Below, piece after piece: positions 59,579 to 64,000 of a stretch of 64,000 nt of DNA. The notes beneath the pieces were generated by a model. It saw only the letters and a program-made list of their open reading frames with translations. It was not told the DNA's origin and did not search any database. The position numbers were made by a program, and so were the translations under genes. Each line of letters starts with the position of its first letter. Position 1 is the stretch's first letter. The stretch is from Verrucomicrobiaceae bacterium (GTDB lineage Bacteria; Verrucomicrobiota; Verrucomicrobiia; Verrucomicrobiales; Verrucomicrobiaceae): assembly GCA_027490195.1 (NCBI GenBank), contig JAIXYN010000006.1:6930-70929 (forward strand), written 5' to 3'.

Positions 59579-59632
59579 TCACACCACCGACCCCGCCACA
59601 TCCTTCCACTTCGCGTGCCATTCATCGAACAC
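59579..59632 (-). repeat. Duplicated 3' end (including a stop codon) of the gene at 60866-61993
   Basis: 59591-59632 is identical to 60878-60919 (42 bp); 54 bp with 4 mismatches; encodes VFDEWHAKWKDVAGSVV* versus VFDEWHAKWKDVAGPVV*. Confidence 0.92.
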
Positions 59633-59704: not shown

Positions 59705-60292
59705 ATGCCTCCACGTTTTCCAGTCTTTTGGGTCACCCTGCTGCTGTTCATCTTGGTAGCAGCGTCCACACAGGACGCTTTAGTGGGCGGCGTCCACCTC
59801 ATCCTCATCCTGCCGTTGGTCCTTTTGGGCCAGTGGTGCGTGCGCTGGCTTTTTCGTCGGTTTCACTCCCCGGTGTGGCTGCGTCGCAGCGCCATGCTGC
59901 TGCCAGCTCTTGTTCTTGCAGCCAAACTTTTCATCGCCGGCGGAAGAGACACCCAGGCTCTCAGAATCGCATTTGCAGGAAACATACCTGCCGGAATCCA
60001 TGATCTACACATCCAGGAAGACGCGTGGACCGACTATGTGGTAACCGCCTACTTCCGCTGCGATCCCGCAAGCCTGCGCGCCATTCTTGAGCGCCCACCC
60101 TTCACCCGCAGTAGCTCCCAGCCAGAACCTCTCGAGTTCAGTACAACAGACTTTCCAGGTCTTCACGCCTTGCCTGATTTTAACGGCCTCATCACGTTTA
60201 AGCGCACCGACATGGAAAACGGCAGCGACTACTGCACGGTGCAGACGGATGCCACATTCAGCTTTGCCTGCATCGTCTATTCCGTGGATTGA
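59705..60292 (+). CDS. Hypothetical membrane protein
   Basis: Three N-terminal hydrophobic segments and a soluble C-terminal domain; lies inside the direct-repeat-bounded islet. Confidence 0.75.
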   Translation: MPPRFPVFWVTLLLFILVAASTQDALVGGVHLILILPLVLLGQWCVRWLFRRFHSPVWLRRSAMLLPALVLAAKLFIAGGRDTQALRIAFAGNIPAGIHDLHIQEDAWTDYVVTAYFRCDPASLRAILERPPFTRSSSQPEPLEFSTTDFPGLHALPDFNGLITFKRTDMENGSDYCTVQTDATFSFACIVYSVD

Positions 60293-60322: not shown

Positions 60323-60853
60323 ATGAAAAGCCGCCTGCTGCTCCTTTCTCTACTTCTATCGCTGCTCCAGCCATCCTGCGCCACACGCCTCGCTTGTGAC
60401 TTCTCAGCACCCAGACTGAGCTGGCAGCATCCCAAGACGCCCAAAGACGGCAGTGAGGAGGGCCGTGTGGCGAGTTACATCACAGGCTGCACCGAGGACG
60501 GCTTTACCCTGTCCGAAGTGAACCACATCAATCATCTGCCGCAATGCGGTATGGATCTCTTTGCCACCTTTCTGACACTGGGCTTGATCCCACACTCCGC
60601 CCCCAATCCGATCCGTGCCACCGTTACAGGGTATGTCGATGGCCGGAAGAAAACAGAAACTTTCGCGCTCTCAATCGAGCGCCACACCTCCCTCTGGCAC
60701 AATCTGCTGCCCGAACGCCACGATGACCGCGTCATCGCACGCGCGGTGCTTCAAGCTCTCCGCCACCGGAAGGAGCGTGATCCAGAGATGCAAAAGCTGC
60801 TGAATCAATACGGAAAATTGGAACTAGAGAAGCTCAAAGCACACAAGGGATGA
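60323..60853 (+). CDS. Hypothetical lipoprotein
   Basis: MKSRLLLLSLLLSLLQPSC lipobox; inside the islet. Confidence 0.75.
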   Translation: MKSRLLLLSLLLSLLQPSCATRLACDFSAPRLSWQHPKTPKDGSEEGRVASYITGCTEDGFTLSEVNHINHLPQCGMDLFATFLTLGLIPHSAPNPIRATVTGYVDGRKKTETFALSIERHTSLWHNLLPERHDDRVIARAVLQALRHRKERDPEMQKLLNQYGKLELEKLKAHKG

Positions 60854-60865
60854 AAGGCAGCGCCC

Positions 60866-61993
60866 CTACACTACCGGCCCCGCCACATCCTTCCACTTCG
60901 CGTGCCATTCATCGAACACGATCGGTGAGATCTCGCTGGGCTTGATTTCGCTGCGGCCGCCCCAGAACACGTTGGTGTATTCGACTGGGATGCCGGACTC
61001 GATGAGGTGCTTGTCGATGGCGGCCTTGTGGGAGAGCACTGTGTCCTTGTCGGTGCCGTGGATGACGCCCATGATGTTCACGTTGGCAAAGCGGTCGCCA
61101 CCTTCACGCCAGTAGGCGTGGGTCATGATGGGATGACGCCCCACCTCGCCGCCGGCGCGTTCTTCCATGCCCTTCGGCACCTTCCAGTGGAAGAGCGCAT
61201 TGAAGCGCGTGACGCGCACGCCCGTGGCGCTGGGTTTGACATGCTCCAGGAAGGTGGAGAAGCGGCCGATGACGCCCTTCTCATCCAGGCGCTTGGCGAC
61301 TTCACAAAATTTCTCAAACGAGACTCCGGAGGCCTTGGCTCGGCCTTCCCAAGGAATAGGGCCGACTTCCTCGATGGAGAGGTCACCTTTGAGATGCAGC
61401 AGCACATTCCACTCTTCGGCATCCAGTTCGGCGATGTTGGTGGTCATCATCACGGCGGGCACATCGGCCTTTTCGCCGGGTTCCATCGTCTTGCGCCGCA
61501 CATGACCGACGCCAAGGGCGAAGATGCCATGCGCCTGCATGGTGTAGTAGCTTTCAGCACCGATCAGACGTGCCAGCACATCGCAATGATGATTGATGTC
61601 ATAGCCCTGCGGCACTTTCAGCGTGGTCCACAGGCGGTAGTCGCTGCCGCTGACCTCGCGGTCGGTGGAGCGCAGCACCACGTGGCCGCTGAAAGGGTCC
61701 TGCTTGAAGAGAAATTCAAAGGCGGCTTCCAGCTTTTCCGGCGGCACTTTCCAGGCCACCAGTGCGCCTTCAGCCAACTTGTTCGCCAACAGGGTCTGCC
61801 GCACGCGGCGGATCACTCCGGCCTTCAGCATCGCTTGAATGCGCTCCACCACGGTCTCCAGTGGCAGGCCGCAGCCTTGTGCAATGTCCTGGAACGGCGT
61901 GGGGGTGAAGCCTTTGATGCGGTCTTCGCTCACGGCGAGGATTTGCGCGTTGATCGGGTCGGTATGGTCGGTGGGAAGGTCGGCGGCGGACAT
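60866..61993 (-). CDS. Fused AhbA-AhbB / NirDL-like protein (siroheme decarboxylase-like; Lrp/AsnC fold twice)
   Basis: Two tandem wHTH + alpha/beta units: TPTPFQDIA.GCGLPLETVVERIQAMLKAGVIRRV and KRLDEKGVIGRF...NALFHWKVP...THAYWR...NIMGVIHG. Confidence 0.72.
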   Translation of the reverse strand: MSAADLPTDHTDPINAQILAVSEDRIKGFTPTPFQDIAQGCGLPLETVVERIQAMLKAGVIRRVRQTLLANKLAEGALVAWKVPPEKLEAAFEFLFKQDPFSGHVVLRSTDREVSGSDYRLWTTLKVPQGYDINHHCDVLARLIGAESYYTMQAHGIFALGVGHVRRKTMEPGEKADVPAVMMTTNIAELDAEEWNVLLHLKGDLSIEEVGPIPWEGRAKASGVSFEKFCEVAKRLDEKGVIGRFSTFLEHVKPSATGVRVTRFNALFHWKVPKGMEERAGGEVGRHPIMTHAYWREGGDRFANVNIMGVIHGTDKDTVLSHKAAIDKHLIESGIPVEYTNVFWGGRSEIKPSEISPIVFDEWHAKWKDVAGPVV

Positions 61994-62096
61994 GGCTGGT
62001 AGTCGGGGGGGAGTCACCCTTAGAGGCAACCCGAAGGAAATGCGAGATTTGAAATTTGCGATTTAGCACCCATCAATTGCCGTCTAGGATGGGCCC

Positions 62097-62474
62097 ATGG
62101 ACAACCGCAAGCCCACCGCCGCCATGCGCAGGCGCCACAACCTGATCTCGGCGTGGCGCGGCGTGGAGGACGGGCCGCTCATGGACCTTCCCACCCTCAG
62201 GGTGGGAGACCTCGCCACGCAGATCATGGCCAAGGCCGGCATGGCGAACCGCGTGAAGCTGGAGGACATCCTTGCCGCTTGGCAGGAGATCGTCGGCGCG
62301 TTCCTCTTCAAGCTCACCCGCCCAGACACCTTTGAGCGCGGCATCCTCACCGTCCGCCTCATGCAACCCACGGCCCACCACGCGCTAATGCAGGAGAAAG
62401 TGAAAATTCTCAAGCGTCTGCAGGAGAAGCTGCCCGATGCGAAGATCAAGGATGTCCGCTTCCGCCATGGGTGA
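62097..62474 (+). CDS. DUF721 / DciA family protein
   Basis: AWQEIVG...TRPDTFERGILTV...LQEKL...IKDVRFR. Confidence 0.8.
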   Translation: MDNRKPTAAMRRRHNLISAWRGVEDGPLMDLPTLRVGDLATQIMAKAGMANRVKLEDILAAWQEIVGAFLFKLTRPDTFERGILTVRLMQPTAHHALMQEKVKILKRLQEKLPDAKIKDVRFRHG

Positions 62475-62482
62475 ACGGAAAA

Positions 62483-62563
62483 AAATGACGAAAGCAGAAT
62501 GAGGAATGACGAATTGTTTCCAACCGTGCAAGCCATGACGTAATGACTTCTCATTCGTCATTC
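62483..62563. repeat. AATGACGAA-family imperfect hairpin between dciA and the cbiX-like gene
   Basis: AATGACGAAAGCAGAATGAGGAATGACGAAT ... TTCTCATTCGTCATTCC. Confidence 0.7.
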
Positions 62564-62579
62564 CAGCTCCCATCTCTTC

Positions 62580-64000
62580 TTGAACTCTCACTCCCACGCC
62601 GCCCTCATCATTATCGGTCACGGTTCCACCACGAATCCGGACTCCAGCGCCCCTACACACCTGCACGCCGACTCCATTCGCCGTCGCGGCCTCTTCCGCG
62701 AAGTCGCCTGCTGCTTCTGGAAGGAAGAACCCAACATGCGCGAGGTCTACGAGATGGTGGACAGCGAGGTCATCTACATCGTCCCGAATTTCATCAGCGA
62801 AGGCTACTTCTGCCAGCAGGTGATCCCGCGTGAGCTGCGGCTCGACGGCCCCACCACGCAGCGCGATGGCAAAACGATCCACTACTGCGATCCCGTGGGC
62901 ATACACCCGAACATGACGCGCCTTCTGCTGCAGCGCGCCGATGAAGTCGCCCCCCATGTGCCGCGTGATCAGACCAGCCTCGTCATCGTCGGCCACGGCA
63001 CCAGCCTGAACGAAAACTCCACCAAGGCCATTCAGGATCAGGTCGCCCTCATTCGCGGCGGCCACTACGGCTTCGCTGAAGTCATCGACACCTACATGGA
63101 GGAGGCCCCCTTTGTGAAGGACTGGGCCACGCTCACCACCGCGCCGAACGTCGTCGTCGTTCCTTTCTTCATCGCCGATGGCCTGCACAGCTTTCAAGAC
63201 ATCCCCGTCCTTCTCGGCATGCGCGAGGACGTCGGTGCAGCCCTCAGCGAGATCGGCGTCTTCCATCAAAACCCGCACCATCTCCAGGGCCGCCAGATCT
63301 ACTACAGCGGCGCCATCGGCACCGAGCCCCTCATGGCAGATGTCATCCTCGATCAGGTGAACGACTTCGATGCCAAGCACCAAGTGCAGAACAAAAAAGG
63401 CCTACCGAACGACGAGGTGAAATCCTCCCTCGCCTACTGGCTGAACTCCGGAATCGATGAAATCGGTGAGATCGTCATCACGACCAACCCCGACGGCACC
63501 TACTCGCTCTGCCACATCGCCGATCGCGGCAGAGAGGATCTCCAAGTCCACCACGAAGCTTACGATGCCCTCTTCATCGCCCGGAACGATGCCAGCGGCA
63601 CCTTCCGCCCGCTGCATTCCGCCCCCACCCTGAATCGCGGCTGGCGGCTCGACCTTGCCGACCTCGACAAACTGCGCCTAGCCCTCGATTTCTTCTACCC
63701 CGCCGCCATCGGCATGGCACGCGCACTTGAGCAGGAAAAGCTTACCGCCGTCCCGCTACGCGATCTCCTCGGCCGCCAGACCGGCATGTACCGCTTCGCC
63801 AACAACATCACCGATGATCAGGCCCACGCACTCATCGGCAAGACCTGCGCCAACACCAAGTGCCTCCGCCGCATCCTCTGGCCCCTCACCGCCACCCAGC
63901 CCATGGACGGAGCCGCAGCCGCCAAAACGCAGCCCACTCACGCCCCCAACGCCATGCCTCTCCTCTGCATCGAAGCCTGCACGCATGTCGTTTCAGCAGC
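62580..64000 (+). CDS. CbiX/SirB chelatase-fold protein fused to a DR2241-like Cys-rich domain (runs off the right edge)
   Basis: Manual translation from TTG 62580: ALIIIGHGS...CFWKEEP...VPNFISEGYF; second unit LVIVGHGT...YMEEAP...VPFFIADGLH; then FRPLHSAP, FFYPAA, RQTGMY, CANTKCLRRILW, LCIEAC. Missing from the ORF track because there is no stop in the window. Confidence 0.85.
   Translation, partial: MNSHSHAALIIIGHGSTTNPDSSAPTHLHADSIRRRGLFREVACCFWKEEPNMREVYEMVDSEVIYIVPNFISEGYFCQQVIPRELRLDGPTTQRDGKTIHYCDPVGIHPNMTRLLLQRADEVAPHVPRDQTSLVIVGHGTSLNENSTKAIQDQVALIRGGHYGFAEVIDTYMEEAPFVKDWATLTTAPNVVVVPFFIADGLHSFQDIPVLLGMREDVGAALSEIGVFHQNPHHLQGRQIYYSGAIGTEPLMADVILDQVNDFDAKHQVQNKKGLPNDEVKSSLAYWLNSGIDEIGEIVITTNPDGTYSLCHIADRGREDLQVHHEAYDALFIARNDASGTFRPLHSAPTLNRGWRLDLADLDKLRLALDFFYPAAIGMARALEQEKLTAVPLRDLLGRQTGMYRFANNITDDQAHALIGKTCANTKCLRRILWPLTATQPMDGAAAAKTQPTHAPNAMPLLCIEACTHVVSA

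Follow-up and report, generated by a model that had tools for sequence, protein, structure and literature searches.

A single-chain siroheme-decarboxylase-type protein and a CbiX-DR2241 chelatase in the probable siroheme-dependent haem route of a Prosthecobacter-like bacterium

We analyzed a 64,000-nucleotide stretch of DNA (the window) from a Prosthecobacter-like member of the Verrucomicrobiaceae, which corresponds to positions 6930-70929 of contig C92 in genome G000. It carries a gene for a double AsnC-fold protein (ahbAB) and a gene for a protein with two CbiX units, a DR2241 domain and an iron-sulfur (Fe-S) module (cbiX-DR2241). In our judgement, the siroheme-dependent (Ahb) route is quite probably the sole route to haem b in this organism, and the two genes would be ordinary parts of this known pathway. 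Neither HemE nor HemH was found in the genome, and AhbC, an AhbD-like enzyme and ChdC of the siroheme-dependent route are present, which points to it as the main haem route of the organism. The two genes and their relevant parts are the following:

60866..62029, minus strand: single-chain protein of the NirDL type with an AhbA-like and an AhbB-like half, most likely a siroheme decarboxylase (Pfam, NCBIfam, PDB, Foldseek)
61670..61684, minus strand: N-half motif H116-V-V118-L-R120 (HxVxR; AhbA-type His and Arg; 9-protein alignment)
61106..61120, minus strand: C-half motif H304-A-Y306-W-R308 (HXYXR; AhbB-type His, Tyr and Arg; 9-protein alignment)
62580..64000, true end 64055, plus strand: CbiX-CbiX-DR2241-Fer4_23 protein (Pfam, NCBIfam, PDB 2jh3)
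62601..62930, plus strand: CbiX unit 1, with H14 present and E74-G-Y at the second-His site (Pfam CbiX, residues 14-117)
62976..63365, plus strand: CbiX unit 2, with H139 and H203 (NCBIfam CfbA/CbiX, residues 133-262)
63456..63710, plus strand: DR2241 'stabilising' domain (PF18069, 64.7 bits, residues 293-377)
63738..64000, plus strand: Fer4_23 4Fe-4S domain (C423, C428, C463, C467), crossing the window end (PF18009, 61.9 bits)

The fused decarboxylase and the CbiX-DR2241 chelatase

The open reading frame (ORF) of the decarboxylase encodes 387 residues when read from a TTG start codon. Its true start is likely the ATG at position 61993, which would give a protein of 375 residues, since the homologues are 374-381 residues long. 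A first-pass annotation of the window had described a single-chain double AsnC-fold protein, and both the ORF list and the family scans confirm it: Pfam reports two AsnC_trans_reg2 domains (PF17805) together with a NirdL-like helix-turn-helix (HTH) domain (PF22451). The top PDB match is NirDL (4ch7), which aligns over the full length with an E-value of 5.6e-14, and both Desulfovibrio AhbA/B subunits are matched as well. An AlphaFold model (AF2; predicted template modeling score, pTM, 0.68) shows a secondary structure of two repeats. When this model was compared by Foldseek, NirDL ranked first (E-values of 2e-18 and 8.5e-17, template modeling (TM) scores of 0.69-0.71, ∼360 columns), followed by the AhbA/B subunits; Lrp/AsnC regulators match one half only, with E-values of 1e-4 or weaker.

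An HXYXR motif is conserved in both the AhbA and the AhbB subunit (PMC4145669). In AhbB of D. desulfuricans, His98, Tyr100 and Arg102 are catalytic and the R102A variant is inactive, while in AhbA His115 is an iron ligand and Arg119 binds a propionate (PMC4145669). The C-half motif of the window's protein is intact and invariant in an alignment of nine diverse Verrucomicrobiae proteins from across the class. The N-half motif is likewise invariant in all nine proteins, with Val in the place of Tyr. With the His and Arg of the N-half and the His, Tyr and Arg of the C-half kept, all residues with an assigned role are present and only the N-half Tyr is changed. The Verrucomicrobial family also shares a very conserved C-terminal stretch, GGRSEIKPSEISP, which lies outside the NirDL-aligned region. 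Motifs, PDB matches and fold matches thus support the assignment made in the first-pass annotation, and we regard the fused protein as most likely an enzyme of the siroheme decarboxylase type, an activity predicted from homology.

Two other roles have to be considered for this protein. NCBI and JGI name it an Lrp regulator, an HTH is present, and the Lrp fold is common to AhbA/B proteins (PMC4145669). It could therefore be a non-catalytic Lrp/AsnC transcription regulator, possibly one that senses tetrapyrroles. We give this only a very slim chance: the catalytic His, Tyr, Arg motif is invariant, NirDL and AhbA/B rank far above the regulators in the fold search, the distribution of the protein is complementary to that of HemE (see below), and the 38-70% identity seen within the class, in most cases at least 48%, would be unusual in a local regulator. 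The protein could also be a NirDL-type enzyme that serves haem d1 (the cofactor of cytochrome cd1 nitrite reductase) and not haem b, as its top PDB match, NirDL of Hydrogenobacter, is a haem d1 enzyme and the decarboxylation reaction is identical in both routes. This we find barely credible. A haem d1 enzyme would leave the organism without a haem route; the genome encodes only two NirJ-family proteins, both closer to AhbC and AhbD-like families (NirS, NirF and NirN were not searched for); AhbAB and HemE show a negative correlation in the phylum; and AhbAB is retained in a 0.9-Mb nematode endosymbiont as well as in gut Akkermansia-like genomes.

The cbiX-DR2241 gene runs past the window end and encodes a full-length protein of 491 residues on the contig, with the domain order CbiX, CbiX, DR2241 and Fer4_23. 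It aligns with DR2241 of Deinococcus radiodurans (PDB 2jh3) with an E-value of 3.6e-38, residues 8-480 of the query against residues 5-468 of the chain, and the four-domain architecture is colinear. This full-length match is in agreement with the DR2241-type CbiX chelatase that had been proposed, and its position 0.6 kb from the decarboxylase gene, across dciA, was correctly given (551 bp from start to start). The residue details noted from the letters also hold on alignment: the GHG His is found in both CbiX units (H14 and H139), the second His occurs in the C-terminal unit only (H203), and the Cys-rich tail has the pattern C423-x4-C428 ... C463-x-E-x-C467. All four Cys align with those of DR2241; across seven diverse homologues, three of them are invariant and the fourth is kept in six. 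An RQ(T/S)GMY motif between the DR2241 and Fe-S domains (residues 408-413) is invariant. Among the NCBIfam models, the double-CbiX model NF002671 is passed (265.7 bits, cut-off 258), and the score with the full-length model NF002672 is below cut-off (313 vs 435 bits).

Paracoccus SirB is a proven siroheme ferrochelatase that depends on His127 and His187, both located in its C-terminal half (PMC4063343). H139 and H203 of CbiX unit 2 align with these two residues (4ccs), and unit 2 is likely the active site of the window's protein. Unit 1 is probably a non-catalytic half because the second His is missing there. CbiX-DR2241 is the sole CbiX of the genome, and searches for further CbiX, HemH or CysG-N chelatases were negative (CbiK was not searched for). 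As the only CbiX/HemH-type chelatase found, it is probably a siroheme (sirohydrochlorin) ferrochelatase with a 4Fe-4S module; that it uses iron and not cobalt or nickel we infer from the genomic context, which includes CysI and no corrin-type methyltransferase. Haloarchaeal cbiX2 has independently been proposed as the ferrochelatase of the siroheme route (PMC3403918, PMC8305020).

A B12 cobaltochelatase or a nickel chelatase, with iron inserted by something else, would fit the JGI name (sirohydrochlorin cobaltochelatase) and the nickel chelatase CfbA among the NCBIfam domain matches, and metal specificity cannot be told from sequence. This reading nevertheless has a slim chance. Besides the lack of another candidate among the chelatase types named above, the genome contains no corrin-type methyltransferase: a CobA profile finds CobA itself and, weakly, RsmI, which is the only other TP_methylase of the genome and was verified and used as positive control. 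Moreover, the CbiX2 and DR2241 pair is kept in Xiphinematobacter, and the haloarchaeal prediction also speaks for iron. For the two proteins of the window, the public names Lrp regulator and cobaltochelatase are probably wrong.

Haem genes of the genome and the proposed route

The first-pass annotation had suggested an inventory of hem, ahb, cysG and nir genes. With E. coli seeds, tblastn of the genome matched hemA and hemC on contig C40, hemB on C39, and cysI, cysJ and cysH; the sole match for the CysG methylase domain is a CobA-HemD fusion on C92. CysI passes the equivalog model NF010029, and a ChdC gene (C60:75762-76619) passes NF008913, the equivalog named "hydrogen peroxide-dependent heme synthase". 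Neither ahbC nor ahbD was found on the window's contig. A search of the whole genome with the NirJ2 model found two radical S-adenosylmethionine (SAM)/SPASM genes, both full length. The first (C83:34513-35691) is AhbC-like and matches AhbC/NirJ1 over its full length with 497-499 bits (cut-off 650). The second (C69:54674-55777) is AhbD-like; it passes TIGR04053 with 435 bits against a cut-off of 395, and AhbD itself (TIGR04545) is the next-best family with 306 bits against 500. Neither this genome nor any of the 18 congeners has HemE (PF01208). The HemN-like genes include HemW and a further radical SAM gene (C24:20772-22112), which, in a genome without coproporphyrinogen, scores below every equivalog cut-off (HemN 193 bits, ChuW/HutW 191 bits).

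In the proposed route, HemA, HemB, HemC and the HemD half of CobA-HemD would produce uroporphyrinogen III, which the CobA half would methylate to precorrin-2. Precorrin-2 would then be oxidized to sirohydrochlorin, a step for which the genome search found no gene. CbiX-DR2241, acting as a SirB-type chelatase, would insert iron via its second CbiX unit (H139, H203) to give siroheme, which would also be used by the sulfite reductase CysI. The single-chain AhbAB would decarboxylate siroheme at the C12 and C18 acetates, with H304, Y306 and R308 being catalytic in the AhbB-like half and H116 and R120 holding iron and propionate in the AhbA-like half. The product would be converted to coproheme by AhbC, encoded elsewhere in the genome. 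Finally, coproheme may be turned into haem b by ChdC with oxygen or peroxide, or, where these are lacking, by the AhbD-like radical SAM enzyme of the TIGR04053 type. For Haloferax volcanii, gene deletions gave a comparable picture: AhbAB and AhbC, followed by ChdC in air or by AhbD without air (PMC5746218). The placement of both genes in siroheme metabolism, with an undescribed role of the Fe-S module, therefore stands; the unusual tetrapyrrole branch that had been suspected does not, as AhbC, an AhbD-like enzyme and ChdC are present and HemE and HemH were not found, which amounts to the known route.

Several observations weigh against the siroheme-dependent route as proposed here. In the hidden Markov model check suggested at the outset, the two halves of the decarboxylase match the NCBIfam equivalog models of the AhbA/AhbB pair (NF040707 and NF040708), but they stay below the cut-offs: residues 224-340 score 88 bits with AhbB (cut-off 125) and residues 42-174 score 57 bits with AhbA (cut-off 140). 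The N-half carries HxVxR instead of HXYXR, and the AF2 model is of only moderate quality (predicted local distance difference test, pLDDT, 72). The AhbC-like and the AhbD-like gene both score below their equivalog cut-offs. The search for HemH, which gave no match in the genome, was by tblastn only. Lastly, no SirC/Met8p/CysG-N homologue was found in the genome, either with TIGR01470 or by tblastn with residues 1-215 of E. coli CysG, which leaves precorrin-2 oxidation without a gene. PF13241 was discarded as a SirC probe in favor of TIGR01470, its matches in the genome being the Rossmann domain of HemA and a 2-hydroxyacid dehydrogenase. A SirC gene hidden between hemA and hemC was also considered; only two small unrelated ORFs are found there.

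Distribution and gene neighborhood in Verrucomicrobiota

To place these findings in the phylum, we used a sample of 301 Verrucomicrobiota genomes, in which "class" denotes the class of the window's genome, together with control genomes that include D. radiodurans and Haloferax; only matches of >350 bits were counted as true HemE. Fused AhbAB is encoded in 40 of the 301 genomes, and the 38 strong full-length matches all belong to the same class. Nearly every class genome without AhbAB has a true HemE, so that the two proteins are almost mutually exclusive. Among the strong AhbAB carriers, HemE is found in G075 only; G213 shows a 227-bit match to a paralogue of the URO-D family.

Seventeen class genomes contain both CbiX and DR2241, and 16 of them also have AhbAB. 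G270, which does not, encodes HemE and lacks ChdC. About 22 Akkermansia-like genomes (genus g2, 1.7-3.3 Mb) carry AhbAB, and no CbiX, DR2241 or SirC was found in them. The co-occurrence of the two genes, which the first-pass annotation had proposed to check, is therefore borne out from the side of CbiX-DR2241, but not from that of AhbAB. In the Akkermansia-like genomes checked, the AhbC and AhbD-like (TIGR04053-type) genes are adjacent or overlapping, and the same arrangement is found in G035, G201 and G108; this adjacency supports an AhbD role of the TIGR04053-type gene. In Akkermansia-like genomes (for example G105:C1:943323-945564, locus L034), the overlapping AhbC and AhbD-like genes are preceded by a gene that, judged by eye on its translation, is O-acetylhomoserine sulfhydrylase-like, and AhbAB is encoded elsewhere in the genome. 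The neighbors of ahbAB in one Akkermansia-like genome, MreB and unrelated genes, were dismissed as pathway genes.

ChdC is encoded in all 16 aerobic AhbAB carriers and in none of the seven Akkermansia-like genomes tested. We therefore propose two versions of the route, an anaerobic one with AhbAB, AhbC and AhbD, and an aerobic one with AhbAB, CbiX2, DR2241 and ChdC. The window's genome represents the aerobic version with AhbC and the AhbD-like gene kept; AhbC and AhbD are retained in this version only in G000, G035, G108 and G201, and they are absent from 11 of the 16 aerobic AhbAB carriers. AhbAB, CbiX2, DR2241 and ChdC without AhbC/AhbD are found in G150, G075, G117, G141, G180, G243, G327, G067, G120, G138, G159 and G306, which include a genome of the window's own family and Xiphinematobacter (G117). 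In such carriers, the absence of AhbC leaves the step from didecarboxysiroheme to coproheme without a known enzyme. The SirC step shows a similar gap: no genome of the class has a TIGR01470 match above cut-off, and all 74 above-cut-off matches fall into other classes. Of the control genomes with DR2241, D. radiodurans gives no SirC match and Haloferax does.

The genomic context of DR2241 was examined in the best 80 of 590 loci, obtained with a four-sequence query from species-representative genomes; all 80 are from Verrucomicrobiota. In 76 of them, CbiX2 is fused to the DR2241 domain or lies directly before it. The fused form is restricted to the Verrucomicrobiaceae, and elsewhere the two are encoded by separate ORFs, either adjacent or apart. 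Among these best 80 of 590 loci, the arrangement of the window, with ahbAB on the minus strand and dciA and cbiX-DR2241 on the plus strand, occurs only in ∼24 close Prosthecobacter loci, and the further run of DUF1015, tilS and cobA-hemD in ∼17. A DUF1015 gene follows cbiX-DR2241 in ∼20 Prosthecobacter-like loci. In other genera, the decarboxylase and chelatase genes are on separate contigs or distant, and no tetrapyrrole genes were found as conserved neighbors of CbiX2-DR2241 in distant loci. Hence, the firm linkage is that of CbiX2 with DR2241 and not of either with the decarboxylase. That the decarboxylase and chelatase genes lie close together is due to chance in the gene order of one lineage and not to an operon, and the two-gene module that had been inferred from it has to be abandoned.

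In Chthoniobacterales, G075 and Xiphinematobacter (L137-L162, L030, G117:804497-805882), an amidohydrolase gene is located directly 3' of the gene with the DR2241 domain and sometimes overlaps it. In ∼22 loci, the amidohydrolase that follows DR2241 is of the TRZ/ATZ type or aminofutalosine-deaminase-like. The TRZ/ATZ-type amidohydrolase was considered as a pathway gene and set aside, as it has no orthologue in the window's genome and is probably unrelated.

These distributions also bear on the function of the DR2241/Fer4_23 module, which might itself provide a missing redox step: either precorrin-2 oxidation in place of SirC, or help in the conversion of didecarboxysiroheme to coproheme where AhbC is lacking. 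SirC is missing from every sampled genome of the class and, among the controls, from D. radiodurans; CbiX2 and DR2241 are nearly always fused or adjacent in the loci described above; DR2241 and ChdC are both present in every aerobic AhbAB carrier; and most of these carriers lack AhbC and AhbD. We still consider such a role rather unlikely. Haloferax holds DR2241 and SirC together, the Akkermansia-like genomes without SirC, CbiX and DR2241 still have AhbAB, AhbC and AhbD, and DR2241 also occurs in G270 and D. radiodurans, two genomes with no AhbAB, a point against an AhbC-like function; in addition, no catalytic role has been proven for the Fe-S clusters of other CbiX/SirB proteins. The link between DR2241 and genomes without SirC was examined in a single class and in the control genomes, and Haloferax weakens it. 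With Haloferax having both and the Akkermansia-like genomes having neither, DR2241 as a substitute for SirC stays a minority reading, and it is doubtful that the window's CbiX-DR2241 is bifunctional, combining precorrin-2 oxidation and iron insertion in place of SirC and SirB.

The route would also account for a puzzle in a nematode endosymbiont. The authors of the Xiphinematobacter genome described hemE, hemD, hemY and hemH as absent and suspected that analogues exist (PMC4607532); a siroheme-dependent route would explain the haem genes reported missing there and in Chthoniobacter (PMC4607532). The Xiphinematobacter genome G117 (915,884 bp, 47.7% GC, 817 genes) contains a hemA-hemC-cobA/hemD cluster, hemB, CbiX2, the DR2241 domain, AhbAB, ChdC and HemW. 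CysI, AhbC, AhbD, HemE, HemH and SirC were not found in it, AhbC and AhbD not even by tblastn at an E-value of 1e-3. Such an explanation matters because nematodes, to our knowledge, cannot make haem themselves.

The remaining genes around ahbAB and cbiX-DR2241 are listed below, where extended coordinates carry the window numbering on past position 64000:

62097..62474, plus strand: dciA, helicase-loader family (PF05258, 58.7 bits)
64246-65481, extended coordinates: DUF1015 gene, 3' of cbiX-DR2241
66639-68165, extended coordinates (C92:73568-75094): cobA-hemD fusion, 508 residues (Pfam TP_methylase and HEM4)

The cobA-hemD fusion starts 2.6 kb past the window end, downstream of cbiX-DR2241 and beyond DUF1015 and tilS. 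The nearest homologues of the decarboxylase and of CbiX-DR2241 are from Prosthecobacter, with 90-94% identity. DUF1015 was rejected as a pathway member because it is absent from Xiphinematobacter. In the latter (G117:316529-318158), dciA divergently adjoins chdC, as it does ahbAB in the window. Since dciA is a single-copy gene in the window's genome, this adjacency is probably due to chance, and dciA, which had been considered as a haem-linked gene, probably just happens to lie between the two genes of tetrapyrrole metabolism.

At the 3' end of ahbAB, we observed a 52-nucleotide direct repeat (59581-59632 and 60868-60919, 96% identical), which copies the last 17 codons and the stop codon of the gene. 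The 1287-bp insert between the repeats contains two ORFs (59705-60292 and 60323-60853) without Pfam matches, and in related loci the homologues of both lie at distances from ahbAB that differ from those in the window. A comparable duplication of the ahbAB 3' end occurs at locus L092. The arrangement looks like an insertion into the 3' end of ahbAB that brought along or regenerated that end.

Significance and comparison with known systems

In reviews, the siroheme-dependent haem route is still ascribed to archaea and sulfate reducers (PMC11306076, PMC10452713, PMC8529089). In the literature searched, the route is not described for Verrucomicrobiota. According to our analysis, a large clade of aerobic bacteria (Verrucomicrobiaceae, Chthoniobacterales and possibly a Methylacidiphilum-like family) would make haem mainly, and apparently exclusively, by this route, which would have the same status in the Akkermansia-like genomes. 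At the same time, two enzyme gaps are exposed, the SirC step across the class and the AhbC step in the majority of the aerobic carriers. The DR2241 family, structurally solved and functionless so far, gains a concrete and testable pathway context.

Among the characterized proteins, NirDL of Hydrogenobacter thermophilus (4ch7/4czc) is the closest in build to the window's decarboxylase: both are single chains of two modules, each an HTH plus an AsnC-type domain, and have the C-half HXYXR in common. They differ in that the identity is only ∼19-20%, NirDL serves haem d1, and the window's family shows the N-half HxVxR and the additional C-terminal stretch. AhbA/AhbB of Desulfovibrio desulfuricans (4czd/4un1) share the fold, the His, Tyr and Arg of the AhbB half, the Fe-ligand His and the Arg of the AhbA half, and the same predicted position in the haem b route, but are two separate subunits instead of one chain.

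For the chelatase, DR2241 of D. radiodurans (2jh3) offers the full four-domain architecture with conserved cluster Cys, whereas its first two Cys are spaced differently and D. radiodurans has HemE as well as ChdC. We know of no function for DR2241 of D. radiodurans. The CbiX/SirB protein of Paracoccus pantotrophus (4ccs) also consists of two CbiX units and carries its active His pair in the C-terminal one of its halves, but it lacks a DR2241/Fe-S module and matches only weakly in sequence (E 1.7e-8).

As a whole pathway, the closest parallel is Haloferax volcanii, where a siroheme route feeds an oxygen-linked (ChdC/PitA) and a radical SAM (AhbD) last step and where a CbiX-type predicted ferrochelatase (cbiX2) and a DR2241-domain protein are present. 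In contrast to the window's organism, it is an archaeon, has SirC, and possesses two two-domain AhbA/B proteins instead of one decarboxylase. We take the system described here to be a bacterial representative of a pathway type already known.

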